NCBI GenBank assembly: GCA_964468585.1
Contig: CAYXTM010000005.1
Coordinates: 10,247 to 74,246 of the forward strand
Reading direction: 5' to 3'
Length of the DNA stretch: 64,000 nt
Origin: an uncultured Thermoplasmatales archaeon
GTDB lineage: Archaea; Thermoplasmatota; Thermoplasmata; Thermoplasmatales; GCA-001856825
Both the position numbers and the translations under genes were made by a program. Every line of letters starts with the position of its first letter. The stretch's first letter is position 1. The notes under the pieces are model-generated. The model was not told the origin of the DNA. It saw only the letters and a list, made by a program, of their open reading frames with translations, and searched no databases. Below, in pieces: positions 10,523 to 60,516 of this stretch.

Positions 10523-10554
10523 AAGATGTTTATATATGTGCTATAATTAAAGTT
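10523..10554. promoter_or_regulatory. compact bidirectional (interleaved) promoter between GDE and GH15 genes
   Basis: The intergenic gap is 32 bp. Plus-strand TTTATATAT (10529-10537) lies about 22 nt before ATG 10555. Minus-strand TTTAATTATA (10541-10550) lies about 24 nt before ATG 10522. Both spacings suggest leaderless transcripts. Confidence 0.4.
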
Positions 10555-12438
10555 ATGGTACGTTTCCTCCCATTGGGAAATGGGAGATTGCTAGTCAACT
10601 TCGACAGCGATATGAATCTTGTCGATTTCTATTATTCTCAAACACAATCGGAAAATCACGGAGGTCATCCATTTAAAACCGGAATAATGATAAGCTCTAA
10701 ATTTCAATGGATTAGAAGTGAAAATATAATAGACTATGACTACATGGATCACACCGCTATAGGAAGGGTTTATTCTAGGTTGGATGACATAGGAGTTACA
10801 TTGTATAACTTTGTTTATCCATATAATGACTTCTTCATTAGGAGAATTGAGCTCAATAACCTTTCAAATCAGAAAAAAGATATTAAACTATTTTTTCACC
10901 AGAATTTCAATATTTATGGCAACAACATAGGGGATACAGCGCTTTATGACCCTGAGACAAACTCAGTTATCCATTATAAGGGCAGACGATATTTCCTAGC
11001 CTCCACCATAGATAGTAAAAATTCTGGAATGAATGCATATGCCATAGGTGTCAAAGATTTTGGAGGTCTTGAAGGAACATGGAAGGACGCTGAGGACGGT
11101 ATTCTGTCACAGAATCCTGTAGCCATAGGATCGGTAGATTCTGTCATTGGCCACAAGTTGAGTATTTCCCCAGGGGAAAAGGAACAGTTGTATTATTACA
11201 TTATATGTGGAAGGAGCGAAGAAGAGGTAAAATCATATAGAATGACATATGATGCTCTAAGATATTATGAAGAAAGGACTGCAAACTTTTGGAGAACATG
11301 GTCAAATAAAAGAAATTTTCAAATGGAAACAGGGGCAGTATCATTATTCAAAAGGTCCTTATTTATTATAAGAAGCCACATGAACCAGCTCGGTGCCATA
11401 GCGGCTTCAAGTGATTCAGATATTTTAAAGTCAAATAAGGACGGCTACTATTATGTGTGGCCCAGGGATGCATCAATGGCCGCATATGCTTTGATGAAAT
11501 CAACACATTATGGTCCTGCAAGACTATTCTTCAATTTTGCCATGAATACGATGGAAAAAGAGGGCTATTTTTATCACAAATATAACATGAATGGAACGAA
11601 GGCCAGTTCATGGATTCCGAGGATCATTGATGGGAAAACCAATCTACCAATCCAACAGGACGAGACTGCACTGGTAATCTGGGCCCTATGGAACTATCAT
11701 AAGTACGTAAATGACTTGGAATTTATATCGACAATATATGAAAATCTCATAAAGAAGAGTGCCAATTTTATATATAATTACTTTGAAAACGGCTTCCCCA
11801 AACCATCCTTCGATCTTTGGGAGGAGAGGTTTGGAATTCATTCTTTTACCATTGCAACGGTTTATGCAGCCTTAAAAGATGCAGCGAAATTCGCAGATAC
11901 ACTAGGCGAAAATACTGAATCGAATAAGTTTGAAGAACGGGCCGAACAGTTGAAGCGAAATTTCAATGAAAAATTCTATTCTGAAGAATTGGGCTATTTT
12001 GCCAGATCAATGATAAATGGAAAGCTAGATTTCACACCTGACGCATCAGTTCTCTTATTGCCCAGATTTGGATTGGTTGAATCCACTGATCCCAGGATGC
12101 TGCAAACAGCAGATGTAATTTCCAAAGAGCTTACAGTGCCTTTGATCGGTGGAATAGCAAGATACAAAGGAGATAATTATCAACGAGTTAAGGATGACCC
12201 GGCAGTGCCTGGGAATCCATGGATAATAACCACTTTGTGGCTTGCCGATTATCTTGATCAAATTGGGAATAAGGAGAAAGCATTAGAAAATATCAATTGG
12301 GTTATAAACCACGCACAGCCTTCAGGTGTATTTTCAGAGCAAATCAACCCTTACAATGGTCAACCTCAGTCCGTCTCTCCACTTGTCTGGAGTCATTCTG
12401 AATTTGTGATAACACTGCTAAATAGGATAAACAGGTAA
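10555..12438 (+). CDS. glycoside hydrolase family 15 (glucoamylase / archaeal trehalase type)
   Basis: The ORF opens at 10516, but MVRFLPLGNGRLLVNFD at 10555 is the family-typical N-terminus. The catalytic-domain motifs YVWPRDASMAAYAL and FDLWEERFG are present. Confidence 0.85.
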   Translation: MVRFLPLGNGRLLVNFDSDMNLVDFYYSQTQSENHGGHPFKTGIMISSKFQWIRSENIIDYDYMDHTAIGRVYSRLDDIGVTLYNFVYPYNDFFIRRIELNNLSNQKKDIKLFFHQNFNIYGNNIGDTALYDPETNSVIHYKGRRYFLASTIDSKNSGMNAYAIGVKDFGGLEGTWKDAEDGILSQNPVAIGSVDSVIGHKLSISPGEKEQLYYYIICGRSEEEVKSYRMTYDALRYYEERTANFWRTWSNKRNFQMETGAVSLFKRSLFIIRSHMNQLGAIAASSDSDILKSNKDGYYYVWPRDASMAAYALMKSTHYGPARLFFNFAMNTMEKEGYFYHKYNMNGTKASSWIPRIIDGKTNLPIQQDETALVIWALWNYHKYVNDLEFISTIYENLIKKSANFIYNYFENGFPKPSFDLWEERFGIHSFTIATVYAALKDAAKFADTLGENTESNKFEERAEQLKRNFNEKFYSEELGYFARSMINGKLDFTPDASVLLLPRFGLVESTDPRMLQTADVISKELTVPLIGGIARYKGDNYQRVKDDPAVPGNPWIITTLWLADYLDQIGNKEKALENINWVINHAQPSGVFSEQINPYNGQPQSVSPLVWSHSEFVITLLNRINR

Positions 12439-33641: not shown

Positions 33642-34805
33642 TCAGTTACTGCTCTTGACTTCTGTCCAAGTAAGCAAGAACATGAGTATGATTCCGGATG
33701 TTGCCAGGAATATCCATGATGCCCGATAATTGTAAAACGAAGCTATTGCTGTAAAGATAGTAGGTATTATACTGCCAAGTGCAATCTGCACGAAATTAAC
33801 GAATGACAGAGCAAAAGGAAGAGACTCTTTTTCTCTTATGTAAAGGTTAGTAAGAGTATAAAGTAATGAAAAGCTGTTCACGGTAATGAGGCCTTCAAGT
33901 ATTACAGCAATTGAGAATATGTAGACATTGGAGGTCAGAGCTATTGGAACGAATAAAATTGAAATGAGGGCTGTCAGAGAAATCGAGAGCAGCCTCCTTG
34001 ATCCATATCTGGAGATAAGGTAGCCTCCAATTATTCCTCCTGGGAAACCGAGTACTAGGTAAATTCCTCCTATTGTTCCAGCCAGTGTTTGATTCATTCT
34101 GATATATGTTTCGGCGTAATAAATTATGAATTGCCCGATTATAGTTTCTGAAAACATGCCTGCCATAAGTCCTATGGAAAGTAACCAAAGAATCTTGCTT
34201 TTTACGACATAAACAATTTCGTCAGCTATCTTGGAACCATGAAGTCTTTCTTGACCGTATTTGTTGGTTGCAATGAACATGAGGATGCCGGAGACTATAG
34301 CCAGTATTCCGCCAAATATGAGGCCATTCCTCCATCCAATAAAATTGTCAACTATTACCCATCCAAATGCTCCTATTCCTCCACCGAGATTGAATGAGCC
34401 GTTGTATATTCCAACCCACAGACCGTATTTCTCAACTGGGGTTATCGATTTCAGGAGTGATAGACCAGGGGAGAAGAAAAGAGCAGAACCAGATCCGGCA
34501 ATGAATCTGAATAATCCCAACTGGAGGAGATTCTGTGAGAATCCGCTCAATACCCCACCAATTCCTAGAACAATAATTCCAAGGAACGAGATAAGACGTG
34601 ATCCGAATTTAGTTGCAAGAAAACCCCCCACCATCTGAAACATTGCGAGCCCAATATAGAAAGATGTGGTCGCAACTCCAAGATAAATTAGCTTTAGATT
34701 GAGGTCCCTCGATATGAATATAAGTCCCGGCGTTATATCGAACCAGTTTAGGGCATAAACGGCCCTTGCGACGTTTATCGTGACTGCTCTTAATCTGTAA
34801 CCCAA
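33642..34805 (-). CDS. MFS transporter
   Basis: 387 aa with about 12 TM helices. It lies 10 nt downstream of the LysA-like gene on the same strand. Confidence 0.75.
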   Translation of the reverse strand: MGYRLRAVTINVARAVYALNWFDITPGLIFISRDLNLKLIYLGVATTSFYIGLAMFQMVGGFLATKFGSRLISFLGIIVLGIGGVLSGFSQNLLQLGLFRFIAGSGSALFFSPGLSLLKSITPVEKYGLWVGIYNGSFNLGGGIGAFGWVIVDNFIGWRNGLIFGGILAIVSGILMFIATNKYGQERLHGSKIADEIVYVVKSKILWLLSIGLMAGMFSETIIGQFIIYYAETYIRMNQTLAGTIGGIYLVLGFPGGIIGGYLISRYGSRRLLSISLTALISILFVPIALTSNVYIFSIAVILEGLITVNSFSLLYTLTNLYIREKESLPFALSFVNFVQIALGSIIPTIFTAIASFYNYRASWIFLATSGIILMFLLTWTEVKSSN

Positions 34806-34815
34806 GAGATCCCCC

Positions 34816-36063
34816 CTATGTCAAAAATCTATCAATTATGTAGTCCAGATCATCTCCTTTTCTTATTATATCAATTTGATCTCCATCAACCATTATTTCC
34901 ATGGGTCTTTTCAGAAGATTATAATTGGAAGACATGGAAGTAACATAAGCACCTCCGTTATACGTAATTAAGACATCTCCAATTTTTGGTTCAACCAATG
35001 CCACATTCTCGCCAAGACGATCCGTATTCTCACATGCCTGACCCGTTATTATGAATCTTTTCTGTTTCCCATATAGTTTGTTCATTATTTCAAAATGGTG
35101 CTTTGCGCCATATAAAGCAGGCCGGAGCAAAACATTGAAGCTCAGATCGGTGCCAATAAAATTTCTGTCGGTCCTCTTGACATTGGTAACAGATGAAAGT
35201 ATCACGGCAGAATTGGCCACCATAAATCTGCCTGGCTCGGTAATGATTTTGGCACCCCATAATCTCCTGTTTTCTGGAACTTTCAGTGAATCATATATAT
35301 TTTTGGCTACCTTGCTGATGTCAAGGTCATTCTGCCCAGGGGTATATGGCACACCATACCCTCCACCAACATCAAGATACTCAAAATCTATGTTTAGTTC
35401 ATCTGAAATTTTTCTGGCAATGGAGAAAAACGCTTTGCTGGAATACTTGAAAAAATCACTGTCCAGGACATTGGAGCCCGTATGCATATGTATTCCAAAC
35501 CTCCTTATTCCAAGGTTCTTGGCTTTCTCATATGTTTTCAGAGCATTCTCTGGTGAGGTACCAAATTTGCTATTTTTTCCACCTGTAGTAATCCCTCTAA
35601 ATTCTCCCTTTCCAATTCCAGGATTTATTCTCAATGAGAATACTTCTGGAATGCTATCCACCAATGAAAATTGAATCTCATCATCAAAGTTAATTATGAA
35701 CTCCTCATCAACAAGTTCATTCAGTTCAGAGCGGGATAAATTATTAGGGCTAACTGTTATTTTTCTCTTATCAAAGCCGACTCTTATCCCCAGATGAGCC
35801 TCATTAGGATTAGCCGCATCCAGTCCACCTTCCATATTCCTTATTAGATTTAGGATATGGAGGTTATAATTGGATTTAGTTGCATAATGAAACTCATGAT
35901 CCTGGAATAGGGAAAATGCATTCTTAAAAGAATTTACGTTATCCAAAATCTGCTTTTTGGAATAAACAATGATGGGAGTTCCATATTCATTCACTATATA
36001 ATCCAATGGAACGTCCTCAATATAATGACGGTTATCATTAAAAATTAAAGGTTTCATGTTCAC
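34816..36063 (-). CDS. lysA: diaminopimelate decarboxylase-type PLP enzyme (group IV decarboxylase)
   Basis: 415 aa. Contains HYATKSN (PLP-Lys region), DVGGGYGVPY, EPGRFMVANSAVIL, GQACENTD and NGGAYVTSMSSNYN, which are LysA-like blocks. It shares a 1-nt junction (36063) with the epimerase gene. Confidence 0.75.
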   Translation of the reverse strand: MNMKPLIFNDNRHYIEDVPLDYIVNEYGTPIIVYSKKQILDNVNSFKNAFSLFQDHEFHYATKSNYNLHILNLIRNMEGGLDAANPNEAHLGIRVGFDKRKITVSPNNLSRSELNELVDEEFIINFDDEIQFSLVDSIPEVFSLRINPGIGKGEFRGITTGGKNSKFGTSPENALKTYEKAKNLGIRRFGIHMHTGSNVLDSDFFKYSSKAFFSIARKISDELNIDFEYLDVGGGYGVPYTPGQNDLDISKVAKNIYDSLKVPENRRLWGAKIITEPGRFMVANSAVILSSVTNVKRTDRNFIGTDLSFNVLLRPALYGAKHHFEIMNKLYGKQKRFIITGQACENTDRLGENVALVEPKIGDVLITYNGGAYVTSMSSNYNLLKRPMEIMVDGDQIDIIRKGDDLDYIIDRFLT

Positions 36064-37187
36064 TAGAAGGATTTGAAATCTGTTTTCTCCGTTATTTCCT
36101 TTACAAGGGAGACTTCCTTCTGATTTATATTGAGGTCACCAAGTCCAGGCTTTCCATCAGATAATCTGTGGCTGTCCTTTAGGGGCAAGACCTTACCGTC
36201 AGTCAATGTATTCTTCATATCTAGATCTGAATCCAGATCCACAAATTTTACGTTCCTGTGATGAAGGGCAAAATGAATTCCTGCAGCAATTCCTATGGCG
36301 CCTTCCATCATGCAACCAACCATGTTTGGTATACCGGCCGCTTCCGAAATGTCCGCAATTCTCTTGGCATTGTATATCCCTCCACTTTTCATAAGCTTTA
36401 TATTTATGAAATCTGCAGCCTCAGCCTTTATAACAGCTATAGCATCCTCAGGTGTATGAACAGACTCATCGGCCATAACAGGAACAGGGCCCTTGTTTCT
36501 CACATATGCAAGGCCATCTAGGTCCCAAAATTTCACAGGTTGTTCCACCAGTTCAATTCCTAGGTTGTCGAATAGCTCTAAATTTGATACGGCTTCAGAT
36601 GGGCTCCACCCCTGATTTGCATCAATGAATATGTCAATGTTATCCCCCACAAGATTCCTTACTGCCTCAACCCTCTTATAGTCTTCAGCAATATTATCCC
36701 CCACTTTCATCTTTATTCTCTTAATTCCAATACCCTTGAGGTATGATGCCTTTTTTAATGCAGATTCAACGTCCATTATTCCTATAGTAACATCAGTTAT
36801 TATGGAATCCCTGTAGGCACCAAGAAATTTGTAAAGGGGCATTCCGTATTTTCTTGAAAGGAGATCATATATTGCAGTGTCAAATCCCGCCTTAGCAGCA
36901 CTGTTCCTTAATATAGAGGATTCAATGAGCTCGTTTAATTTTGGTATATCGGAAATTTCCCTTCCAATGAGGGAATTGGCAATAACTTTAGATGCCTCTA
37001 TGACAGTCCCCTGTGTTTCTCCAGTAATCCTCGCAGCAGGACTTGCCTCCCCTATTCCAACATAACCATCTTTATCTGTTATCCTGATAAGTACTTCGTC
37101 GCTTTGTTCAGTCGTACCCAAAGAAATTTTAAACGGCGCTTTATAGTATACTGTCCCTTTAAATATTTCTATTTTTTTAATTGTCAT
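36063..37187 (-). CDS. dipeptide epimerase (L-Ala-D/L-Glu epimerase-like, enolase superfamily MLE subgroup)
   Basis: 374 aa. Contains KRIKMKVG (KxK general base), FIDANQGW, VEQP and VMADES (metal ligands), INIKLMKSGG (second Lys) and FVDLDSDLD (the DxD motif associated with dipeptide substrates). Confidence 0.75.
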   Translation of the reverse strand: MTIKKIEIFKGTVYYKAPFKISLGTTEQSDEVLIRITDKDGYVGIGEASPAARITGETQGTVIEASKVIANSLIGREISDIPKLNELIESSILRNSAAKAGFDTAIYDLLSRKYGMPLYKFLGAYRDSIITDVTIGIMDVESALKKASYLKGIGIKRIKMKVGDNIAEDYKRVEAVRNLVGDNIDIFIDANQGWSPSEAVSNLELFDNLGIELVEQPVKFWDLDGLAYVRNKGPVPVMADESVHTPEDAIAVIKAEAADFINIKLMKSGGIYNAKRIADISEAAGIPNMVGCMMEGAIGIAAGIHFALHHRNVKFVDLDSDLDMKNTLTDGKVLPLKDSHRLSDGKPGLGDLNINQKEVSLVKEITEKTDFKSF

Positions 37188-37309
37188 ACCTGTCCTTCAA
37201 TAATGCCTGGCACGTAGATAAATATTCCCGAAATTTTTCCATTAATTTCATTAGATTCCAGGTTAAAATACTGCAAAAATTATATCTGTATATTACAATT
37301 TAGTCTTCA

Positions 37310-38008
37310 ATGATGGTTATCACCAGCGTTGCCGATATTCGCACAGAACCAAGATTTGAGTCTGAAAGAGATTCACAGGTAATATATGGGGAATTTGTTG
37401 AATTGTTGGAGAATCTCGGTGAATGGTCAAAAATAAAATCTATGGATGGTGTTGTTGGTTATATAAAAACTGCGTTATTAGGAGAGGAAAGGAAACGAAA
37501 ATATAAAATAAATTCTATGCACAGAAACGATATCATGGCATTACCCTTTGGAGCTTACGTTGATGAGAAAGATGTTGAACATTTCAAGATACCAAATGCC
37601 TTTCTTGAACCTATAGATAAGATATTTAATCCTTTAAAGCTTTATAAAAAGTTCATGGGAGTCCCATATCTTTGGGGTGGAACCTCAGATTTTGGATTTG
37701 ACTGTTCAGGCTTTACCCAGAGACTTTTCCGATTTTCTGGATTAGAGATTCTAAGGAATTCATCGCAGCAAAGAGATACTTCCGAAACAGTAAAAAACTT
37801 TGAAGAGGCGTTGCCAGGCGATCTTATATTCTTCAAAGGACATGTTGCCCTTTACTTAGGGAATGGAGAGATCGTTCATGCCAATGGGAGATTTTCTCGC
37901 GTCACAAAGAATAATCTTTTCGACGGCTCTGAATACGCCAGAACATTGATGAGTATATTTGAAAAAATAGGTAGGTTTAAGGTTCCATGGGAAACTGAGG
38001 AGCCATGA
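37310..38008 (+). CDS. cytoplasmic NlpC/P60 cysteine peptidase with N-terminal SH3b-like domain (YkfC / gamma-D-glutamyl-diamino-acid endopeptidase-like)
   Basis: 232 aa with no signal peptide (MMVITSVADIRTEP...). SH3b-like EFVELLENLGEWSKIKSMDGVVGYIK. NlpC/P60 core YLWGGTSDFGFDCSGFTQ (catalytic Cys) and GHVALYLGNGEIVHA (His/His). TATA-like AAAAATTATATC lies about 29 nt upstream. Confidence 0.8.
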   Translation: MMVITSVADIRTEPRFESERDSQVIYGEFVELLENLGEWSKIKSMDGVVGYIKTALLGEERKRKYKINSMHRNDIMALPFGAYVDEKDVEHFKIPNAFLEPIDKIFNPLKLYKKFMGVPYLWGGTSDFGFDCSGFTQRLFRFSGLEILRNSSQQRDTSETVKNFEEALPGDLIFFKGHVALYLGNGEIVHANGRFSRVTKNNLFDGSEYARTLMSIFEKIGRFKVPWETEEP

Positions 38009-38322
38009 AGAATCTATCTAAAAAAATGGAACTTACTGATGATCTGATATTCCACGTGCTTATGCACTTTAAGAGATTTGGCGTGGACTATGCCAAATCC
38101 GTCGGACGCGACTTGGAAATAAACAAAAGAGATGTATGTGAAATATTAAAGAAACTTTTTGAAATGGGTCTTCTTGAAAAAAGAAGATCAGGCATGCTTA
38201 AAAGGAAGGAAGCAAGGTTGAAGAAGAGGGTAACTACCCACCCCCATCATACATATTATCAACTCAGTGAAAAAGGTGAGGAATTTTTGAAAAAATTCTT
38301 GGAAAATAGGGGCTACGCATAG
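38005..38322 (+). CDS. winged-helix DNA-binding protein (DUF2250-like)
   Basis: 105 aa with a wHTH pattern (DYAKSVGRDLEINKRDVCEILKKLFEMGLLEK). It has an ATGA overlap with the NlpC/P60 stop. Confidence 0.5.
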   Translation: MKNLSKKMELTDDLIFHVLMHFKRFGVDYAKSVGRDLEINKRDVCEILKKLFEMGLLEKRRSGMLKRKEARLKKRVTTHPHHTYYQLSEKGEEFLKKFLENRGYA

Positions 38323-45373: not shown

Positions 45374-46624
45374 TTAAAAAAGGGGTCGCTGGTCTGGTCT
45401 TACGTTTGCAAGAGGTTTCATAGCCTCATCATTTTCTATTATTTTCACTATGGCGGAAGTTTCATAGTTTAGCTGAATTACAGTGGTTCTTCCATATCTG
45501 CCAAAGCTCTGCACCTCGGATGATATTATTCCCATTTTATCCAATTCTGATATCAGATCTGAAATACGTCTGCTAGTGAGCGGAGGGATACCAATTTTCT
45601 TTATGGCTTTTAAATAGAGATCGTATACTTCTCCAGACGTTATTTTTCCACCACCCTTTATTTCCTTTAGTAGCACTACTGAATACAAGATCGCTTTGGA
45701 ATGAAGGGGGAGGGAAGAAATTATCTCCGTGAACACGTTCCTTTCCAGTCTATCCCTTGCCTCATATATTGAATCCTCGTCAAGCTTTTTCTTATTTTTG
45801 AACAATGCGATCTCGTAAGAGACTCTCAAGAGATCTATAGCCCTTCTAGCATCACCGTTTTCCTGGGCTCCAATGGCGGCAGCCAATCTCAATACAGGCT
45901 CATCAACCATGTCTATGATACCAGAGAACAGGGCTCTATCACGTAGGATGTCATAAATTTCATTGGCTGTATATGGATGGAATACGATAGTCTCTTCCTG
46001 CAGCCTGCTTCTAACCCTTGGGTCCAGATAGTCCATAAATTTCAGATCATTGCTTATGCCTATTATGGATACTTTTCCATTTTTGGATATTTCATTTATT
46101 CTTAGGAGTTGATAGAGAACTGCATCACCTGACTTTTTGACCAATTTATCTACCTCATCAAGGGTCAAAATTAACACTCCACCGAACTCCTCTATCTTTT
46201 CTTGAACAGATTGAAACAATTTATCCATAGGCCATCCTGTAAAGGGAAATTTTTCTTCCCAGGAGTAGAGCAGAGAGTTACCTACGCTAGCCAAAATGCT
46301 ATAAGAACTATCATTTACACCGCAATTTAAGTTTATAACCCTGACTTTGGCATCAAATTTAGTGTTAATTATATTTTCAAGTTCCCGTTCTACAAATTTA
46401 ACAGTACTGGTCTTCCCAACTCCAGGCTTTCCGAATATAAGGATATTTGATGGCCTGCTACCCTGAATAGCAGGAGATAAAATCTGAGCTATTTGCTCAA
46501 CTTCCTTTTCTCTATGAGGTAACCTCTGAGGAATAAATGAGGGATCGAGAGCCTCTTTAACTTTTCCAGCTTCATTGTTAGATTCAAGAAACTTTTCAAA
46601 TATGTTTCTGCTCTCTGAATTCAT
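45374..46624 (-). CDS. cdc6: Orc1/Cdc6 replication initiator
   Basis: 416 aa. Contains LPHREKEVEQI, ILIFGKPGVGKTS (Walker A), ILTLDEVD (Walker B) and a C-terminal winged helix. Confidence 0.9.
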   Translation of the reverse strand: MNSESRNIFEKFLESNNEAGKVKEALDPSFIPQRLPHREKEVEQIAQILSPAIQGSRPSNILIFGKPGVGKTSTVKFVERELENIINTKFDAKVRVINLNCGVNDSSYSILASVGNSLLYSWEEKFPFTGWPMDKLFQSVQEKIEEFGGVLILTLDEVDKLVKKSGDAVLYQLLRINEISKNGKVSIIGISNDLKFMDYLDPRVRSRLQEETIVFHPYTANEIYDILRDRALFSGIIDMVDEPVLRLAAAIGAQENGDARRAIDLLRVSYEIALFKNKKKLDEDSIYEARDRLERNVFTEIISSLPLHSKAILYSVVLLKEIKGGGKITSGEVYDLYLKAIKKIGIPPLTSRRISDLISELDKMGIISSEVQSFGRYGRTTVIQLNYETSAIVKIIENDEAMKPLANVRPDQRPLF

Positions 46625-48123: not shown

Positions 48124-48822
48124 ATGGCTGAAATAAGAGTAATAGTTGTGGAACCAAAAAATCCAGGTAATTTAGGATCCATCGCAAGGATAATGAAAAA
48201 TTTCTCAGTAGATGAACTTTACACTGTAAACACTCCGCGAATTCCTCCTGAGGACTTCTTTAGATCAATGAAGGGAGAAGAAATTCTCAGGAAAAGGATC
48301 GATGTACCCACTCTAAAGGATGCAATTAAAGACCTTAAATTAGTAATTGGAACTTCTGGCATCATATCAAAATCAAGGAATGCGGTTTTGAGGAAAAACT
48401 ATAATTCTAAGGAAATATCAAAATTGGTTTCAGGATTGGAAGGGAAGATAGGGGTGGTTTTTGGTAGAGAAGATATTGGGCTTACAAACGAGGAACTGGC
48501 TTTGTGCGATCTGTTCCTCCAAATTCCAGCAAATGATGACTATCCAATTCTAAATGTTTCACATGCTGTTGCAATAGTTCTTTATGAACTATTTTCCACT
48601 ACGAAGGACGAGCAAAGAGACATAATCGATAGGTACAAATTAGATTTATTGGTAAAGAAATTCAGGCAAAACCTAATAGCCAATAATTATCCTAAACATA
48701 GAGTGGATAAGACTGAGCTACTATTCCGGAGGGTTATAGCAAGGGCAGGGATCACTGAATACGAGTATAGAGTTCTGATGGGAACAATCGGTTGTAGAAA
48801 TCGTGACCTCCATTCAGAGTGA
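48124..48822 (+). CDS. SpoU/TrmH-class RNA 2'-O-methyltransferase (TrmJ-like)
   Basis: 232 aa. Contains VVEPKNPGNLGSIARIMKNF, VVFGREDIGLTNEEL and ILNVSHAVAIVLYE, which are SPOUT motifs 1-3. Confidence 0.7.
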   Translation: MAEIRVIVVEPKNPGNLGSIARIMKNFSVDELYTVNTPRIPPEDFFRSMKGEEILRKRIDVPTLKDAIKDLKLVIGTSGIISKSRNAVLRKNYNSKEISKLVSGLEGKIGVVFGREDIGLTNEELALCDLFLQIPANDDYPILNVSHAVAIVLYELFSTTKDEQRDIIDRYKLDLLVKKFRQNLIANNYPKHRVDKTELLFRRVIARAGITEYEYRVLMGTIGCRNRDLHSE

Positions 48823-49489
48823 AGGCATTTATGGTGTACATTTTTGTTTGATTGTACTTTAGAATTTCAATTCCGTATTTTTGGGAGATCTTATTGGCCT
48901 CATCTTCTGTGGGGGATCCAACTACCCCCACTAGACCGTCCGGATGCTTTTTGTAATAAGTGAAAAGAATATCACTCTCTAGGCCTTCAATTGTTTTAGA
49001 TTCTCCATGAACAAAGCCAGAAATGTCAAAGTTTGATAGTTCATTCATATAGCCTTTTAGGCTATCTATTAGCTCTGAAACAGTTTCGTTTATTTTGTCC
49101 AATAACTCCTTTACTGAAGAGTTTACGTACTTCTGTGCGAAATTTTCATTTTCTATCATTATTGTCTTGTCAATATTCTTTTGGATCTTGACTAAAGTAT
49201 TCGTTGCTCTCCTGTCCCTCTCTGGAGACTCACTCTTGAATGGCATAATTGCTATGAAAAATATTTTCTCTCCTCTTGACTTTAAACCCTCCAATAAGGT
49301 AGGCAGGTGTTTTGATGAAAAATTTCCAGCCGGTGATGCGACTACTATAGTGTAGTCGGTTCTCTTAAAAGTACCCCTATTTTCCCATTCCTCTCTATTT
49401 CTCAATCTATATATGAAGGTATGATTAACAGATGTGACAGAATTAACCCCTGCATCTCCCAGTGCAATGATTTTGAATCTGTCTGACAT
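48752..49489 (-). CDS. divergent FtsZ/tubulin-fold protein with degenerate nucleotide-binding motifs
   Basis: The start is set at ATG 49489 (MSDRFKIIALGDAGVNSV) because a TATA-like TTTAAATA sits about 26 nt upstream. It is collinear with FtsZ by eye. T1 is GDAGVN (FtsZ has GGAGNN). T4 is ASPAGNFSS (FtsZ has GGGTGTG). IFFIAIMPFKSESPERDRRA corresponds to VVT.PF.FEG..R. TIMIENE corresponds to LIVIPN. T7 is NFDISG (FtsZ has NVDFAD). Confidence 0.55.
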   Translation of the reverse strand: MSDRFKIIALGDAGVNSVTSVNHTFIYRLRNREEWENRGTFKRTDYTIVVASPAGNFSSKHLPTLLEGLKSRGEKIFFIAIMPFKSESPERDRRATNTLVKIQKNIDKTIMIENENFAQKYVNSSVKELLDKINETVSELIDSLKGYMNELSNFDISGFVHGESKTIEGLESDILFTYYKKHPDGLVGVVGSPTEDEANKISQKYGIEILKYNQTKMYTINAFTLNGGHDFYNRLFPSELYTRIQ

Positions 49490-49511
49490 AAATATGACAT
49501 TATTATGACAG

Positions 49512-49519
49512 TATTTAAA
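49512..49519 (-). promoter_or_regulatory. TATA-like box for the FtsZ-like gene
   Basis: Minus-strand TTTAAATA is centred about 26 nt upstream of ATG 49489. Such boxes are common by chance in AT-rich DNA. Confidence 0.35.
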
Positions 49520-49545
49520 CATTTCCCCATTACAATGTATAACAA

Positions 49546-50604
49546 TTAATTTCTAATTTTCATCAGTGCCTTTAGCAAAATATTCTTTTGGACATTAAGA
49601 GAAAAAGTGTTTTTAACGCCTCCTCCATAACCGAACCCTTTCTTTTCCTTATTGAGCAAACCGGCATTTTCCATATCTCTCAATAGTTTGTAAATTCTCG
49701 ATTCTGGCATGTCAGATGCATATTTTTTAAGGTCATCTGAAGTAAAGTTGTTTTTATTGAGATTATTGAGGAAAATTATTAGAATTTCAATTTCCCAGTC
49801 ATCCAGGTATTCCAGAGCACTGTTATCTATAGGCTCTGAGAATTCCCTACTAACATCAAGTATAAGTTCTGGTGATAATGGAACATCTCTCATTTCCGCC
49901 AATTTGCTTGAATATCTTAACAGTTCTATAGCTATTCTTGCATTACCGGATGGATTTGAAATTTCTGCGATTTTGTAAAGGGATTCATCATCATATGTTC
50001 CATCATATAGTCCGAGTTGGGCCCTATCTTTGAGAATAGAAAACAACTGTTCTATGCCATAATCTGGAAGGTTGACCTGATTTAGCTTGTTCAGGGTTGA
50101 TAATGTATGAACATCCATAAACATTTCTGGATCTTCAATAGTAAGAAGGAGCAATTTCACAGGTGGCAAATTAAGTTCAGTGGACCTCCCCAGAAGATAA
50201 ATTATCCTGCTATTGCTTGCCTTTAGTGAATGGACTTCATCCAAAATAATGAGATTGTTTCTGGGAAGATCTCTGAAGATCTGTCTTGCAATATTTTCAA
50301 TACTGGATGATAGAAATTCTCCACCTCTCCAAATATCCTTTTTTGCAATTTCGGAAAGTATTAGTCTGTCTGAGTTGGATATATAACAATTAACATAGCT
50401 GCTACTGTATTCCCGGTGCTTTTTTATTATGTGCTTGGCAATTACAGTCTTACCAGTCCCTGGTTTTCCTTTCAAGACTACAGTTGATTGTGCATCGGAA
50501 CTGAAAAGAAGTTTATCTATCAAATGTACTTCATTATCCCTACCTATCAACTTCTCTGGGATGTATTCCGGGGTTAGGAAGACTTCATTCTTTATAATCC
50601 TCAT
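49546..50604 (-). CDS. Orc1/Cdc6 paralog (second copy)
   Basis: 352 aa. Contains LIGRDNEV, VVLKGKPGTGKT (Walker A), LIILDEVH (Walker B) and a C-terminal wHTH (IYKLLRDMENAGLL). Confidence 0.85.
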   Translation of the reverse strand: MRIIKNEVFLTPEYIPEKLIGRDNEVHLIDKLLFSSDAQSTVVLKGKPGTGKTVIAKHIIKKHREYSSSYVNCYISNSDRLILSEIAKKDIWRGGEFLSSSIENIARQIFRDLPRNNLIILDEVHSLKASNSRIIYLLGRSTELNLPPVKLLLLTIEDPEMFMDVHTLSTLNKLNQVNLPDYGIEQLFSILKDRAQLGLYDGTYDDESLYKIAEISNPSGNARIAIELLRYSSKLAEMRDVPLSPELILDVSREFSEPIDNSALEYLDDWEIEILIIFLNNLNKNNFTSDDLKKYASDMPESRIYKLLRDMENAGLLNKEKKGFGYGGGVKNTFSLNVQKNILLKALMKIRN

Positions 50605-55393: not shown

Positions 55394-56015
55394 GGAGGGG
55401 CATATAATTTTAATGTTAAAAATTTTTACCATAAATTTCAACTATCAATTATCATTTAAAATAGAAATCTTTGAGAAGTAATCTGAGGTCGATTTTACAA
55501 GTTTGAAATCATTAAAGTTTGAATAGCTAAAACACCAAAAGAATTGAACCTGTCTAAAGCATTCAATTTTAAACATGTAAATTAAATTCAATTGCTGACT
55601 GTGGCATCATCTTTTGATCTTATTAATTTATCATTTATTTACCATAATGCAATAAGACTAACGCTCCATATGTTTGGATGAAAATTCTATGCATGGGTTT
55701 TTAAAATTATAGCAATGATGGTCATAGAAAAATCATGATCTTACAATTATAATATGGCTCTATAGTATTTTCAAAGAGTCCACATACAGACTTTGTGGCT
55801 TACGTTAATTTTCTTCAAAATATTTAAATTAAATGAAATTATTCATATATAAGAGGCATATCAGACACCATATTTAAATAAATCAGCAGTATGTAACTGC
55901 GACTTTCAAAATCATCTTAGAGATTGTAACATTAAAGCATGCTAACGTAAATGGGTGAAAACCTCACATAACTCTTCGATTTGATACATTTTATGTGTAA
56001 GAATAGGCTAAATTA

Positions 56016-57518
56016 CTAGGTAATTGGAATATAATTAAAATGATTGATTATTGTGATATTTAAATCATAAACCAAAATCAAACCGTTTGGTTCATTTTGC
56101 GGATAAAAATAGACATAAAAATATAATTTGGAATTATAGGCCATATTTGGCCGCAAAGTGACATTAATTAAAATGCCTGCACTACTATCCAAAATTACAG
56201 GGATTGAATAATTTTTGCCTAATCCATATTGATAATTATATTCCATTTGCAGATTGTCATTGGATCCATTAAAATATAAGGTAAAATTTAAAATATTTGT
56301 TAAATTTTTATAACTATATAAGATAGAATAGGCATTGAAACTCAAACTATATGTAGAATTTATTGCTAAAATGGTAGGGTATTCTTCAATGAATAAAAGA
56401 TTATCTAAATATGTCCATTTTTCCCCCTTAATGCTATTCGCGATAGTTCCATTTGTTTGAATAATCCAGAACCGATTGGTTGATTGATCAAATGTGATCG
56501 CTCCACTAGTGCCTTTGGAGAAGATTTTATTCCCATATGGTGAAAAGCCTCCATTTATTGAGCCAACCACATTAGATGAACGATCTAATGAAGTTCCATT
56601 TTTCAATTCCAATAAATAGATATGGTTATTTCTCCCTATCGTGATTCCAATAAGATCGTGAATATTAGTATTGTCATAAATTCCCCATGAATTATTAGAC
56701 AGGGCCACATAAACAATTCCTTTATATGATATACCATATAAGCTATAATTATAATATGCCGCTGTAGCAATAATATTTTTTTCAGAGTTTGATTTTATAT
56801 ACCACCCTGAAAGATTGGTCCCTTGAAGGCCAAGACTGTAATAATATGTAGTATCAAAAAAATAAGTATCTCCATAGAAGTTTGTAAAGAAAAATCCTTC
56901 GTCGTAATTATTCACATATCCTTCTACATTTGAGGTAACCGAGGTCCATGGTCCGGGATACTGGGTTAATGGCAAATTCCAGAATGACGTGGCATTAAAC
57001 CAATAACCATCGTGTAAATTATAGCCGAAAACATATCCATCATAGGTTAATAAAACTACAAAAGGTACCTCTTGTATTATATTACTAGAGAAAAATAAAG
57101 TGTAATTAATAGCAGCAATACTTGTGATCTGCCCAGCATACGGAAAGTAATCATAAGGGGTCCCTAGATAATAATAATAATTCGAATTATCCCATTTAAC
57201 AATTACGTGTCCAAATGTATCAGTCCAAAAAAGATTCCCATTATCATCAGCATATATTCCAGATGACCATATACTCGTTAAATTGGTATTCGCATGATCT
57301 TTATATAAATTTAATTTTGTATTCCATAAATAATAGTTTGTACTATTGTTATAAATGATTTTAGGAGCATTCTGTGCAATATTTTGTGGGTAAATATTTG
57401 AATTAAGAACATCGCCAACCGGCTCTATTGTGAAGGAAATTATCAAAATTAATAGTACAATAAACAATCCTAGAACTTTTATCCTATTATTCTTTCGTTG
57501 TACTATTAGATTTATCAT
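56016..57518 (-). CDS. secreted/anchored Asn-Tyr-rich protein, predicted beta-propeller plus C-terminal beta-sandwich
   Basis: 500 aa with a single N-terminal TM/signal anchor (RIKVLGLFIVLLILIISF). Six or seven aromatic-rich repeat units follow (e.g. NLFWTDTFGHVIVKW, GFFFTNFYGDTYFF, RFWIIQTNGTI). More than 15 N-x-S/T sequons were counted by eye. I recognise no family. Confidence 0.5.
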   Translation of the reverse strand: MINLIVQRKNNRIKVLGLFIVLLILIISFTIEPVGDVLNSNIYPQNIAQNAPKIIYNNSTNYYLWNTKLNLYKDHANTNLTSIWSSGIYADDNGNLFWTDTFGHVIVKWDNSNYYYYLGTPYDYFPYAGQITSIAAINYTLFFSSNIIQEVPFVVLLTYDGYVFGYNLHDGYWFNATSFWNLPLTQYPGPWTSVTSNVEGYVNNYDEGFFFTNFYGDTYFFDTTYYYSLGLQGTNLSGWYIKSNSEKNIIATAAYYNYSLYGISYKGIVYVALSNNSWGIYDNTNIHDLIGITIGRNNHIYLLELKNGTSLDRSSNVVGSINGGFSPYGNKIFSKGTSGAITFDQSTNRFWIIQTNGTIANSIKGEKWTYLDNLLFIEEYPTILAINSTYSLSFNAYSILYSYKNLTNILNFTLYFNGSNDNLQMEYNYQYGLGKNYSIPVILDSSAGILINVTLRPNMAYNSKLYFYVYFYPQNEPNGLILVYDLNITIINHFNYIPIT

Positions 57519-57537
57519 AATTATAAAAGAAAAAAAT

Positions 57538-58095
57538 TTAACTGATCTGATAATTTATTACAATTTCAGACGAACCAGATGCTGAACCCGTCAATATGAA
57601 TCCAATGTATAAAGCATTCCCAGCAGACGTTAGGTGAAAGTACGTTCCAGAGGTACTGACTTGAGTTCCAGATATGCTGATTCCATTTGTAGTATTTGAA
57701 ACTGTTAATTCGGAAGTGCTGGCATACATCGTAATTCCTCCATTGGTTGGGTTTGGAGCAAAAAGTGTAACATAAACTGGGCCATTATTTGTAGGGGTAT
57801 TATTAACTATGAGAAAAACATTGACCAGGGCGGTATAAGCGGAGCCACTTGTTGTATTTATGTCAATGGTAGTACCGGATGGTATAGGGCCTGCAGCACC
57901 TTTTGCATATACGAGTCCCATTGCATTCGCAGGGGCATAATTAGGTCCTTCAGTCAGATAAATCTCAGGGTTAACCCCTACAGTATTAGTAGGGAAGTTA
58001 TAACTTATTACAACTGTAGCCATTACCAACGATGGAACAATAATGGCTAGGGCAATTGATATTAGCCCAAGTTTCTTTGCTTTCAATTTGAACAC
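57538..58095 (-). CDS. small secreted Thr/Ser/Gly/Asn-rich beta-protein (possible filament/surface subunit)
   Basis: 185 aa. The N-terminus MFKLKAKKLGLISIALAIIVPSLVMA has a basic n-region and a hydrophobic core. The rest is low in charge and beta-rich. It lies 19 nt upstream of the 500-aa gene, and a TATA-like TTTATATATA lies about 27 nt upstream. Confidence 0.5.
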   Translation of the reverse strand: MFKLKAKKLGLISIALAIIVPSLVMATVVISYNFPTNTVGVNPEIYLTEGPNYAPANAMGLVYAKGAAGPIPSGTTIDINTTSGSAYTALVNVFLIVNNTPTNNGPVYVTLFAPNPTNGGITMYASTSELTVSNTTNGISISGTQVSTSGTYFHLTSAGNALYIGFILTGSASGSSEIVINYQIS

Positions 58096-58264
58096 CTCAA
58101 AGAGTAACCAATTATATTAATTATATATAAAAATTTTTTTGGAGATGTTTTTTAAAATACAAGAGAATGCGTTTTGCTTATTAACGGATTTTAATGATAT
58201 GATAATAAAATTATTTCGACATTATCCCAATTTTATTATAGTCCAGCTTGATTATTGATTTAGG

Positions 58265-58867
58265 GTGGGTTCCAAGTTGTTATATCTTAGCTTTCATAGG
58301 TTCATAGAATCGCTCCCATTTTTATTAACAGGAATCGCAATATTTATTCTTTTCATGTACCACTACAATTTTTCTGCAAAAAGATTTAGGATAATCAAAA
58401 CCAATTATATCGTCATAGCTAGGGTAATAGTCCCAATAAATCTCTTAGTAGCAGTCACACTAGACCTATATTTTCTTTTCAGGGGATCATCCATATTCGC
58501 TATACCCGTACCATCGATTTTGGTATTGATTTCATTTATTGTGATATCGTTTTTGATATCATTCACCACAACTTATACTATAATCAATATTTTTTTCCTA
58601 AGGGAAGATATGATGGTTAAATGGTCAGCTTCGTTGTTGACTTTATCAATTTTGGGCATTTCAATCATATTAATCCTTCATTTCATAATTAAACTATCAT
58701 TAATCTCAGCAGCTCCAATAATTTCATTCCTATTTGCTCCTATAATTGTGATTGCGCAGGGAATTCGAAGATTTAATCCTTATTTGGTAATATCTATACC
58801 AGGTATCATATCCGCAACGTCCATTGCATACCTGGTCTATGCAATTTTCTTCTTTGGATTTAGATGA
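58265..58867 (+). CDS. polytopic membrane protein, unknown function
   Basis: 200 aa with a GTG start in the track and about 6 TM helices. It is divergent from the secreted-protein pair. I recognise no motifs. Confidence 0.45.
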   Translation: MGSKLLYLSFHRFIESLPFLLTGIAIFILFMYHYNFSAKRFRIIKTNYIVIARVIVPINLLVAVTLDLYFLFRGSSIFAIPVPSILVLISFIVISFLISFTTTYTIINIFFLREDMMVKWSASLLTLSILGISIILILHFIIKLSLISAAPIISFLFAPIIVIAQGIRRFNPYLVISIPGIISATSIAYLVYAIFFFGFR

Positions 58868-58968
58868 ATCTGAAAATAATTCAAAATTTTTAAATAAAAA
58901 GGATGTAAGCACTGTCAAAACTTTCTATTTTCATTCCTTAGATAAATCAATATATCTCAGAATCCTAT

Positions 58969-60069
58969 ATGTTCATAATGCATTGTAAGTATAAGAAAAA
59001 GATAGCTGGTATCCTAAATATCTTTGACATAATTTTTATAATTTTTATGGGTTATTATACGCGATTAATTTTACCCAGCGACTTCGAAGTTCATGCCATA
59101 ATTGGTATTATGATACTGTTATCAATGCTTTCATTACTACTCATATGGAATATAATAAATGGGATAAAACTAGCCCTTTATATGAATGTATTTTTTGCTT
59201 TATTAAGAGTTTTTCTAGCCCTAACAATTATCATCGAGGTTCCAATCATATTATTGTTCCTGATTTATGATGTTATTCTTATTTTATACTTATTTAGGGT
59301 TAATAGTTGCTTTCTTAATCCTTCTAGATTCTTCGCCAAGCCAGATGTTGCAGTTGCATTCATTGCCATAGGATTCGTATTTGCGTATGGTTTTTTTGGT
59401 TCCCTTCTTTTAGGCAGGGGATTTAACCCAAAAATAGATAATCCAATCGATGCATTGTATTATACCGGAGAAGTAATTACAACACTAGGCTTTGGAGATA
59501 TCATACCTACTAACGATATCACCAAATTATTTACAATAAGCTTAAGTGTATTGGGGTTAGGAGCATTCTTTGGTGCAACAACAATAATTATAGCCCCAAT
59601 TGTATACTCAAGAGGAAGAAGGGTGGTATCTCTAATGGACAGACTGGAATCTTTGAGTCTTAAGGATTTCATTCTCATAATTGGGCATAATAATTATTTG
59701 AATAACGTAATAAAGGAATTAAGATCAAATGATGAGTTAATCATAATTATTGATAAAGATGAAGGAAAGAGGGAGTATTTAGAATCATTAGGCTGTTATT
59801 TTGAGGGAAATATGAGCATGGTAGAAGTGATAAACAACTTTAAGCTAACCAGGGCGAAAATGATACTGCTAGGGTACAATGATGACGGAGTTAATCTGCT
59901 GAATCTTAATTCGATTCTCAACACATACGGTGACACTATAAAAGAAAAAATTATAGTAATAATTAATAACCCTGAGAATTACTTAAGTTTCAAAAACCAA
60001 GCTGGTTTAATCATTAACTTATCTGAAATTCTATACGAGAATATGAAGAAGTATTTTGGAAATGCTTAA
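58969..60069 (+). CDS. potassium channel with C-terminal RCK/TrkA-N-like domain
   Basis: 366 aa. Has the selectivity filter TTLGFGD between two TM helices, extra N-terminal TM helices, and a C-terminal Rossmann-like domain whose glycine motif is degenerate (LIIGHNNYL). Confidence 0.8.
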   Translation: MFIMHCKYKKKIAGILNIFDIIFIIFMGYYTRLILPSDFEVHAIIGIMILLSMLSLLLIWNIINGIKLALYMNVFFALLRVFLALTIIIEVPIILLFLIYDVILILYLFRVNSCFLNPSRFFAKPDVAVAFIAIGFVFAYGFFGSLLLGRGFNPKIDNPIDALYYTGEVITTLGFGDIIPTNDITKLFTISLSVLGLGAFFGATTIIIAPIVYSRGRRVVSLMDRLESLSLKDFILIIGHNNYLNNVIKELRSNDELIIIIDKDEGKREYLESLGCYFEGNMSMVEVINNFKLTRAKMILLGYNDDGVNLLNLNSILNTYGDTIKEKIIVIINNPENYLSFKNQAGLIINLSEILYENMKKYFGNA

Positions 60070-60093: not shown

Positions 60094-60516
60094 ATGAGTG
60101 ATATACTAATAACAAAAAGAGAAAGAGATTTCCTCCTGGAGATAGTTGAGAACAGTAAGGGAGGATTTCCTATCAGATTGGTAGACCTTGCTGCCCAGAT
60201 GTCTGTAAAACCACCAACGGCCTTGGGAGTAGTCAAAAGGCTGGAGAAGATAGAACTAGTGAAAAATGAAAGGGGAATGATTAAGGCTACAGAAAAAGGG
60301 CTCATATACTATAGAGAAATAATTTACCATCACCGTGTTCTGGAATGTATCCTTAAAAACTCGGGAATAGATGATGTCAATTCTTGTTTGGAAGCGGCTA
60401 AGCTGGATTATCAAATCCCCCATAAAGTAATCGAAAAAATGGAGGAATATGCCGGAAGTCCAACTGAATGTCCTCATGGTAAACCGATTGAAAAACCAAA
60501 GGAGGTGGTGCTATGA
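60094..60516 (+). CDS. DtxR/MntR-family metal-dependent transcriptional repressor
   Basis: 140 aa. Has an N-terminal wHTH (IRLVDLAAQMSVKPPTALGVVKRLEKIELV) and a dimerisation/metal domain with HHRVLECIL and ECPHGKPI. Confidence 0.8.
   Translation: MSDILITKRERDFLLEIVENSKGGFPIRLVDLAAQMSVKPPTALGVVKRLEKIELVKNERGMIKATEKGLIYYREIIYHHRVLECILKNSGIDDVNSCLEAAKLDYQIPHKVIEKMEEYAGSPTECPHGKPIEKPKEVVL

Follow-up and report, generated by a model that had tools for sequence, protein, structure and literature searches.

Why would an archaeon that makes no murein, or any other bacterial-type cell wall, carry genes that look suited to taking murein peptides apart? The question is raised by five adjacent genes in a 64,000-nucleotide (nt) stretch of contig CAYXTM010000005.1 (the window, to which all coordinates refer unless another locus is named), whose host is a Thermoplasmata archaeon. 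The genes encode a cysteine amidase with an SH3b and an NlpC/P60 domain (hereafter the peptidase), a dipeptide epimerase of the enolase superfamily, a diaminopimelate (DAP) decarboxylase (LysA), a transporter of the major facilitator superfamily (MFS) and a DUF2250 winged-helix protein. A preliminary description of the locus had proposed that they serve the catabolism of murein stem peptides. From gene content, this central idea is strongly backed, both by a recurrent linkage of the peptidase and LysA genes across archaeal neighbourhoods and by the gene islands in which the peptidase lies in relatives. We consider it probable, if well short of certain, that the module, present here as five genes amid housekeeping genes, is the peptide branch of a Thermoplasmata-wide peptidoglycan-catabolic system that would convert stem peptides to L-Ala, L-Glu and L-Lys.

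The route that we envisage begins with murein stem peptides shed by neighbouring bacteria, which would reach the cytoplasm, possibly via the co-transcribed MFS transporter. There, the peptidase, which has no signal peptide, would cut the gamma-D-Glu-meso-DAP bond, an activity predicted from its fold and from S1 and catalytic residues that are all in place. The epimerase, with its catalytic machinery and DxD motif intact, would then turn L-Ala-D-Glu, the substrate suggested by gene context, or another L-Xaa-D-Yaa dipeptide, into its L,L form, so that ordinary dipeptidases could finish the job. LysA, whose family membership is clear, would decarboxylate the freed meso-DAP to L-lysine, and the DUF2250 protein, coupled to the peptidase, may control both divergent promoters. 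In net terms, bacterial wall debris would go in and the three amino acids would come out.

Organization of the locus

The module consists of two divergent sets of genes. On the minus strand, the epimerase gene (36063-37187; 374 amino acids (aa); Pfam MR_MLE_N and MR_MLE_C) comes first, followed by lysA (34816-36063; 415 aa) and, last, by the MFS gene (33642-34805; 387 aa; TTG start). On the plus strand, the peptidase gene (37310-38008; 232 aa; Pfam SH3_16/SH3_3 and NLPC_P60) precedes the gene for the DUF2250 protein (38005-38322; 105 aa). A divergent intergenic region of 122 bp (37188-37309) lies between the two sets. Reading the junctions directly, we found that the TAG stop of the epimerase gene abuts the lysA start, that 10 nt including GGGGGG separate the lysA stop from the TTG start of the MFS gene, and that the peptidase and DUF2250 genes overlap in an ATGA at 38005-38008 with GAGGAG just before it. 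Because these junctions are tight, we regard the two sets as two operons. The first description holds for all five genes and their motifs as well as for the divergent gap and the ATGA coupling, and the sole adjustment is that lysA may start at ATG 36057, giving 413 aa as in database entry P0125, instead of at GTG 36063, giving 415 aa.

The arrangement is more than a chance one, since an orthologous metagenomic contig (L085), whose peptidase is 80% identical, reproduces the five genes, their order and the flanking genes. As for conservation in relatives more generally, the arrangement is whole in L085 and the peptidase-LysA pairing is kept broadly, whereas the MFS and winged-helix genes are specific to the lineage.

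The peptidase

The NLPC_P60 domain (PF00877) of the peptidase scores 81.7 bits, which places the protein in the NlpC/P60 family (MEROPS C40). Its catalytic triad, C132/H178/H190, aligns to C238/H291/H303 of BcYkfC and does not vary among 54 archaeal and 73 bacterial homologs; the same is true of Y120, W122, D131, S133 and R149. In BcYkfC, Tyr226, Trp228, Asp237 and Ser239 are the S1 residues that bind X-L-Ala-gamma-D-Glu, according to the criteria of Xu et al. 2010 (PMC2954226). Y120, W122, D131 and S133 of the window peptidase correspond to these residues, as expected for a gamma-D-Glu-diamino acid amidase. An AF2 model built from 54 homologs (pLDDT 91.5, pTM 0.86) gave as its best full-length Foldseek matches BtYkfC (3pvq; TMq 0.82), BoYkfC (3npf; 0.77), BcYkfC (3h41; 0.73) and AvPCP (2hbw; 0.68); single-domain NlpC/P60 enzymes matched half of the model, with a TMq of about 0.43. 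In this predicted structure, SH3b1 packs on the NlpC/P60 domain and forms the active-site cleft with it, as in the YkfC/DPP-VI/AvPCP group.

Membership of the YkfC subfamily proper depends on two further residues, namely Tyr80/Asp221 of BoYkfC, which are Tyr118/Asp256 in BcYkfC and Tyr64/Asp144 in AvPCP (PMC4600125). We verified this mapping against the chain numbering of 3npf. The SH3b Tyr acts as amine ligand and steric gate and the Asp neutralises the L-Ala amine, and the window peptidase has neither of them. The Tyr is replaced by Val48, with V, L, I or M in 53 of the 54 clade members versus Tyr in 69 of 73 bacterial homologs. The Asp is replaced by Asn150, with Asn in every one of the 54 clade members and at 14 of 15 archaeal loci versus Asp in 69 of the 73 bacterial sequences. 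Only the three loci L008-L010 retain the Tyr, and L010 also keeps the Asp; for this reason they look transitional between bacterial YkfC and the Thermoplasmata type. These three loci (peptidase at about 10001-10670 in each) are labelled 'Nitrososphaerota archaeon' or 'archaeon', and there the peptidase gene is flanked by LysA and apparent ATP-binding cassette (ABC) peptide-transporter genes. An alternative alignment that equates BcYkfC Tyr118 with Tyr51 (GYIK) of the window protein was rejected, as a 92-sequence alignment has a bacterial Trp at that position and the conserved Tyr three residues upstream (D-G-Y-x-G-W).

The replacements recall DvLysin, which cuts peptidoglycan, anhydro-muropeptides, N-acetylmuramic acid (MurNAc)-peptides and free peptides (Xu et al. 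2015, PMC4600125). Ala and Asn at the two positions set DvLysin apart from the recycling enzymes, and a single Ala-to-Tyr mutation (A211Y) turns it into an enzyme for free peptides (PMC4600125). Since Val or Leu together with Asn replaces the Tyr/Asp clamp for the free L-Ala amine in the archaeal clade, N-substituted (lactoyl- or MurNAc-linked) peptides are probably tolerated besides free tri- and tetrapeptides. We predict that the window protein probably acts in the cytoplasm as a gamma-D-Glu-diamino acid amidase, with relaxed specificity at a lysin-like S2/S3 site. It is best described as an enzyme that would work like YkfC yet falls outside the YkfC subfamily by the residue test. The label "YkfC-like" used in the preliminary description was apt for fold, triad and S1 residues and went too far for a strict specificity for free L-Ala, since the Tyr/Asp clamp is replaced across the clade.

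The cytoplasmic location is supported by the N-terminus, as no signal peptide, membrane anchor or hydrophobic N-terminal segment was found in the peptidase or in its 54 relatives. The same observation bears on the possibility that the protein is exported to kill bacteria by hydrolysing their peptidoglycan, as do the archaeal weapons that were described in 2025. Bactericidal peptidoglycan hydrolases do exist among archaea, the Thermoplasmatota being rich in homologs (PMC12352652), and a lysin-like S2 site would suit such a role. A protein that carries neither signal nor anchor and sits with cytoplasmic catabolic enzymes is, however, a most improbable weapon.

LysA and the gene neighbourhoods of relatives

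LysA scores 311.3 bits against the equivalog model TIGR01048, above the cutoff of 297.9 by a small margin, and the decarboxylases of L008 and Picrophilus exceed the same cutoff with 381 and 351 bits. Its 13 best matches in the Protein Data Bank (PDB) are all DAP decarboxylases, with D-Orn/D-Lys decarboxylases much lower. By Pfam and NCBIfam profiles and PDB matches, the identities first given to the three enzymes hold at the family level.

To place the pairing of peptidase and LysA genes in context, 15 non-redundant archaeal neighbourhoods were compared, with at least seven archaeal loci from a contig pattern scan plus 12 exact-protein context look-ups. Close homologs of the peptidase form more than 100 clusters, essentially all from Thermoplasmata. 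In 12 of the 15 neighbourhoods, no more than about 5 kb separates the peptidase gene from a LysA gene; order and orientation vary, and the 12 include the deep-branching L008-L010. The adjacency, whose loss in relatives would have counted against a murein-peptide module, is therefore conserved well beyond the window.

The neighbourhoods of several relatives are far richer. In Picrophilus torridus (L002; AE017261.1, 8006-24704), the peptidase ortholog lies in a 15-kb island that encodes, in order, NamZ, a dipeptide epimerase, GH3, a PBP4B-like beta-lactamase-fold protein, a 1291-aa SBP_bac_5 protein, the NlpC/P60 peptidase, LysA, a peptidase S13, a MurQ-like SIS protein, a NagA-like amidohydrolase, a second SIS protein and a BcrAD_BadFG kinase (MurK family). 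The MurQ-like SIS protein of this island passes MurNAc-6-P etherase subfamily models (326 vs 168 and 270 vs 255 bits) and stays below the equivalog TIGR00274 (255 vs 302 bits). Similar islands are found at L007, L086, L087 and L091; the last adds a peptidase S66 (LdcA/YkfA LD-carboxypeptidase family) and two NamZ genes, and L090 adds two genes for M55 (DppA-type D-aminopeptidase) enzymes. Judging by these annotations, the islands of L002, L007, L086, L087 and L091 together apparently make up a complete gene set for the catabolism of peptidoglycan sugars and peptides. NamZ and MurQ-type enzymes are not known to act on anything but MurNAc compounds, and DAP is essentially a metabolite of murein or of the lysine pathway. 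The gene context consequently points to peptidoglycan.

No Amidase_2 or Amidase_3 domain (AmpD/AmiE-type MurNAc-L-Ala amidase) is among the precomputed Pfam labels of L002, L086, L087 and L091. Candidates for the detachment of MurNAc from peptides are the unannotated genes at 15115-15807 in L002 and at 10734-11708 and 16536-17687 in L086, and the DUF218 genes at 7866-8399 in L087 and 9254-9784 in L091. Three loci also encode very large SBP_bac_5 proteins with a hydrophobic N-terminus (L002, 3855-7730; L090, 16881-20681+; L091, 700-4014), which range from 1104 to more than 1579 aa. One of these large proteins has Big_1/MG-like domains, and the group may be anchored at the cell surface and bind muropeptides or peptides.

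The dipeptide epimerase

The best PDB matches of the epimerase are the Enterococcus faecalis enzyme 3JVA (249 bits) and Bacillus subtilis YkfB (1TKK; 244 bits). Characterised dipeptide epimerases score above both the muconate cycloisomerases (141 bits at most) and the OSBS/NSAR enzymes, so the protein does not group with the non-dipeptide members of the superfamily. Residues K159/K161, K264, D189/E215/D240 and D317/D319 align to K160/K162, K268, D191/E219/D244 and D321/D323 of YkfB. The protein accordingly has what is expected of a dipeptide epimerase: the KxK motif and second Lys that form the acid/base pair, the three Mg ligands, and the DxD motif (D317-L-D319), which holds the ammonium group of the dipeptide.

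The nearest relatives of the epimerase are archaeal, with identities of 64-85% in Thermoplasmata, about 53% in Thermoprotei/Brockarchaeota and 44-47% in Korarchaeota and Bathyarchaeia; among the best 120 relatives, all that carry names are archaeal. Epimerases encoded in the other Thermoplasmata islands are only 36-41% identical to it. The lineage of the window epimerase is widespread in Bathyarchaeia, Korarchaeota and Thermoprotei, where it may represent a general archaeal module for dipeptides with D-residues. At L093 (Bathyarchaeota CP070749.1, 10001-13463), such an epimerase gene adjoins genes for an MFS protein and an M29 aminopeptidase, and at L094 (Thermoprotei MAG (metagenome-assembled genome), 8505-11128) it adjoins an M24 peptidase gene; at both loci, no NlpC/P60 or LysA gene is nearby.

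Transporter, putative regulator and divergent intergenic region

The MFS protein (Pfam MFS_1, 154 bits) has homologs only in its own lineage, at L085/L089, with 66% identity. It showed no homology to known peptide or muropeptide permeases (AmpG-type MFS, POT, or Opp/Dpp/MppA ABC systems) beyond the generic MFS_1 match. MFS genes that lie beside epimerases or peptidases at L086, L087, L092 and L093 show no detectable homology to it, and the islands of relatives carry SBP_bac_5 proteins in its place. The DUF2250 protein (Pfam DUF2250, 90 bits) belongs to an archaeal winged-helix family; a homolog adjoins the peptidase gene only at L085/L001, that is, within the lineage, and a PDB sequence search returned no match. 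Given that homologs of both proteins beside these genes are confined to the lineage and that the MFS similarities are weak, we infer the roles of importer and regulator from position, and the DUF2250 protein is put forward as a candidate local regulator.

Two AT-rich blocks of the intergenic region are kept in L085: GATAAATATTCCCGAAATTTT at about 37218-37240 and AAAAATTATATCT at about 37276-37288, each of them preceding a start codon by about 25-35 nt. Based on their composition and position, they are probably archaeal TATA/BRE promoter elements. The first block also holds an inverted repeat, ATTC-CC-GAAT, beside the TATA-like ATAAATA; it might be an operator, but its shortness keeps it from being called one.

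Origin of the module

The window looks like an ordinary stretch of archaeal chromosome. It encodes aRF1, Pelota, enolase, PPDK, ribosomal protein S2, glycogen enzymes and two Cdc6/Orc1 paralogs, together with TyrRS, deoxyhypusine synthase, FolC and carbamate kinase. The module has a GC content of 0.37-0.40, the same as its flanks, and no mobile-element genes were found near it within the window. Named relatives of all three enzymes come from MAGs of Thermoplasmata or Thermoplasmatota, and cultured genera are distant (Picrophilus peptidase, 51% identity; Ferroplasma LysA, 48%).

In a neighbour-joining tree of 88 homologs, which uses capped distances and is a rough method with limited sampling, the archaeal peptidases form one clade (91/100 bootstrap), as do those of the core Thermoplasmata (78/100). 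The bacterial peptidases nearest to the archaeal clade come from Mesoaciditoga/Thermotogae, Acetothermia/Bipolaricaulota, Zixibacteria and Hydrothermota. One peptidase with 69% identity (P0006) is labelled 'Candidatus Parvarchaeota archaeon'; its contig may be mis-binned, a suspicion that arises because the rest of the clade is from Thermoplasmata.

Since the archaeal peptidases form one clade, the base composition is native and the epimerase has its relatives among archaea, we favour one or more old acquisitions followed by vertical descent and rearrangement. This argues against a recent Firmicutes-like transfer, an origin that the preliminary description had put up for testing, as neither the nearest bacterial peptidases (Thermotogota, Bipolaricaulota, Zixibacteria) nor the kin of the epimerase nor the GC content points that way. 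It also bears on a stricter parallel with Bacillus, in which a YkfC-type peptidase recently acquired from Firmicutes would act only on free L-Ala-gamma-D-Glu-mDAP (mDAP, meso-DAP) imported by the MFS protein. For such a parallel speak the YkfC/AvPCP-like domain architecture and fold and the precedent of the YkfC-YkfB pair in bacteria (PMC2954226; PMC5808125). We nevertheless regard it as quite unlikely, because the Tyr/Asp clamp is absent across the 54 clade members (PMC4600125), the clade is monophyletic with Thermotogota/Bipolaricaulota-like and not Firmicutes neighbours, mobile elements are lacking in a region of native GC, and the MFS protein is unrelated to peptide permeases.

Evidence against murein-peptide catabolism and other explanations

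A number of observations weigh against the conclusion that the module dismantles murein stem peptides. All enzymatic steps are predictions from sequence, modelled structure and gene context. The prediction of peptidase specificity is soft, given that the Y80A/D221N double mutant of BoYkfC gained no more than trace activity on MurNAc-peptides and large substrates (PMC4600125). The MFS protein, which is not conserved outside the lineage, looks like a carrier of anions or sugar phosphates: it weakly resembles PgtP/UhpC/DgoT-type (OPA/ACS) anion carriers, far below cutoffs, and its nearest solved relative is the sugar-phosphate exchanger SLC37A4, at 36 bits. The earlier view of this protein as the importer of murein peptides accordingly finds little in its relatives to lean on. 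In addition, the 64-kb window holds no LD- or DD-carboxypeptidase, dipeptidase, MurNAc-L-Ala amidase or recognised peptide transporter. A tblastn search with the proteins of the Picrophilus island, together with a survey of Pfam domains, found no GH3, NamZ, MurQ, NagA, S13, S66 or dipeptidase genes in it; a complete sugar and peptide island, with NagZ/NamZ/MurK/MurQ/NagA and LD-/DD-carboxypeptidases beside the peptidase, is absent from the window, which has the peptide branch only. An AA_kinase gene and a Mur-ligase-family gene of the window were considered as links to lysine or murein and rejected, as they encode carbamate kinase and FolC.

The decarboxylase gives rise to another point of this kind. 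On a Ferroplasma acidiphilum-type contig (L088, 8497-13152), a lysA ortholog with 48% identity lies between a DDE transposase gene and an amino-acid permease gene, with no peptidase or dap genes near it, and at L087 and L092 the peptidase has no lysA nearby. The Ferroplasma gene makes a biosynthetic or dual role of LysA possible, and the enzyme could be also or mainly biosynthetic. Taken further, lysA would be a housekeeping gene for the last step of lysine synthesis by the DAP pathway, and its adjacency to the peptidase gene would reflect a loose clustering of genes for amino acids and peptides; that LysA passes the biosynthetic equivalog model agrees with this. We consider this explanation unlikely, since the adjacency recurs in deeply diverged lineages, L008-L010 among them, and in differing orientations, and no dap gene was found beside lysA in the window or in the archaeal neighbourhoods with gene or domain annotation. 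A dual role in salvage and biosynthesis would in any case be compatible with the catabolism of stem peptides.

The substrate of the epimerase is the remaining point. Arg24 of YkfB, which lies in the capping loop and binds the side-chain carboxylate of Glu, is Gly24 in the window protein and is replaced by Gly in each of the eight epimerases examined from archaeal islands, so the protein differs from L-Ala-D/L-Glu epimerases sensu stricto (YkfB/YcjG). Its best NCBIfam match is still an L-Ala-D/L-Glu epimerase model, at scores below the cutoffs (NF041118, 271 bits vs 500; NF011708, 117 vs 343). The best solved match, 3JVA, was reportedly crystallised with Xaa-Tyr dipeptides. Because Arg24 is missing and related epimerases sit without NlpC/P60 or LysA genes, L-Ala-D-Glu as substrate is an inference from gene context. 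The L-Ala-D/L-Glu epimerase of the preliminary description holds for the catalytic, metal and DxD residues, and not for the specificity for Glu.

These features raise the possibility of a module that handles D-amino-acid or gamma-glutamyl peptides of whatever source (peptide antibiotics, poly-gamma-glutamate or racemised detrital peptides) and is not specific to murein. Without the Glu-binding Arg24, the epimerase resembles dipeptide epimerases of broad or hydrophobic specificity, and its lineage occurs in Bathyarchaeia, Korarchaeota and Thermoprotei near MFS and M29/M24 genes and away from NlpC/P60 and LysA. Some NlpC/P60 enzymes, moreover, cleave poly-gamma-glutamate. Yet the S1 residues for binding L-Ala-gamma-D-Glu do not vary, no gene is linked to that of the peptidase more tightly than LysA, whose substrate DAP is essentially specific to murein and lysine metabolism, and the NamZ and MurQ-like genes in the islands of relatives have characterised homologs that act on MurNAc compounds only. 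A module of such generality is, in our view, distinctly improbable, and catabolism of murein stem peptides remains the explanation that we prefer.

Relation to known systems

The closest precedent for the module is the bacterial pairing of YkfC and YkfB (PMC2954226; PMC5808125). Like B. subtilis ykfABCD and B. cereus ykfBC, the module joins an SH3b-NlpC/P60 amidase to a dipeptide epimerase of the enolase superfamily, and the triad, the S1 pocket and the catalytic and DxD residues of the epimerase are identical; B. subtilis YkfC is likewise cytoplasmic. In contrast to these systems, the archaeal host makes no murein, its peptidase has one SH3b domain instead of two and Val/Leu plus Asn instead of Tyr/Asp, and its epimerase lacks Arg24. 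The archaeal module also adds LysA and has an MFS protein in place of the Dpp/YkfD ABC system.

The peptidase shares other features with enzymes outside Bacillus. DvLysin (Desulfovibrio vulgaris DVU_0896, PDB 3M1U; Foldseek TMq 0.64-0.67) has the same combination of a small hydrophobic residue and Asn at the S2/S3 positions and the same SH3b1-NlpC/P60 core, but it is a lipoprotein lysin with a c-clip domain and two SH3b domains, whereas the archaeal protein is small, predicted to be cytoplasmic and encoded in catabolic operons. The cyanobacterial gamma-D-Glu-L-diamino acid endopeptidases AvPCP and NpPCP (2HBW, 2EVR) resemble it in size (about 230 aa) and in their single SH3b plus NlpC/P60 domain; AvPCP, however, keeps Tyr64/Asp144, and its sequence identity to the archaeal peptidase is only about 19%. 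The E. coli MpaA-YcjG(-PepD) and Bacteroides AmiA-YkfC routes likewise comprise gamma-D-Glu-mDAP cleavage, L-Ala-D-Glu epimerisation and dipeptide hydrolysis. They differ in that MpaA is a zinc amidase and in that bacteria recycle their own wall by these routes, whereas in the archaeon the products can only be nutrients. Homologs of all enzymes of MurNAc/GlcNAc (N-acetylglucosamine) catabolism (NagZ, NamZ, MurK, MurQ and NagA, as in B. subtilis, Clostridium and Tannerella) are encoded beside the peptidase at L002, L007, L086, L087 and L091, whereas none of these genes is in the 64-kb window.

That archaea feed on bacterial wall debris was proposed in 2009 for Pyrococcus abyssi, whose Pab87, a CubicO S12 D-peptidase, trims D-Ala from muropeptides (PMC2651629). 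Pab87 is also an archaeal wall-debris enzyme, and S12/PBP4B-like genes occur in the Thermoplasmata islands too; unlike the present module, it is a single enzyme of another family from another archaeal order, without a gamma-D-Glu-DAP amidase, epimerase, LysA or MurNAc genes. The 2025 account of secreted archaeal peptidoglycan hydrolases that kill bacteria makes no mention of NlpC/P60, recycling or MurQ (PMC12352652). Full-text searches of the literature that is free of subscription brought up no account of this module or of the island in Thermoplasmata. The earlier statement that nothing of the kind had been described for such archaea is correct for the gene set and has to give way, for the concept, to the proposal made for Pab87 (PMC2651629). 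What is novel, on the present gene assignments, is a known bacterial pathway whose host does not itself produce the substrate and which includes a predicted lysin-like amidase, an integrated LysA, a lineage-specific transporter and a putative regulator.

Few pools of bacterial necromass are larger than peptidoglycan, which is also the chief source of D-Glu, D-Ala and meso-DAP in the environment. Its degraders are poorly known in habitats where archaea abound, for example acid mine drainage, hot acidic soils and sediments. Tentatively, and as a speculation that may well go too far, we propose that Thermoplasmata vertically maintain a cytoplasmic apparatus for dismantling muropeptides. In it, a relaxed, lysin-like amidase would act on sugar-linked as well as free peptides, replacing MpaA and YkfC types where no AmpD/AmiE-type domain is listed, and a dedicated LysA would make lysine from murein meso-DAP. 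In acidic and sedimentary habitats, such archaea would live as specialists on peptidoglycan necromass, on which they might depend for lysine. If there is such a catabolic route, it would explain in concrete molecular terms how archaea can feed on the wall debris of bacteria, and it would add a metabolic link between bacteria and archaea that leads from DAP to lysine. The two residues at the SH3b/NlpC-P60 interface would, in addition, offer a natural experiment in how lysin-type and recycling-type specificity are tuned. The hypothesis is directly testable in Picrophilus, as it is cultured and has the full island.

Other features of the window

Several features away from the module deserve mention. 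A glycogen cluster at 6508-12438, upstream of the module and unrelated to it, encodes GH57, GT4 glycogen-synthase-like, debranching GDE and GH15 glucoamylase-like proteins. Two Cdc6/Orc1-type AAA+ genes (45374-46624 and 49546-50604) lie less than 5 kb apart, and a replication origin may be near; between them is a truncated tubulin/FtsZ-like open reading frame (ORF; 48752-49522). The segment at 56001-60000 has a GC content of 0.31-0.32, versus about 0.38 elsewhere, and may be foreign or fast-evolving. ORFs with no Pfam match lie at 56016-57518, 57538-58095 and 58265-58867 within this low-GC segment, and another is found at 60513-61466.

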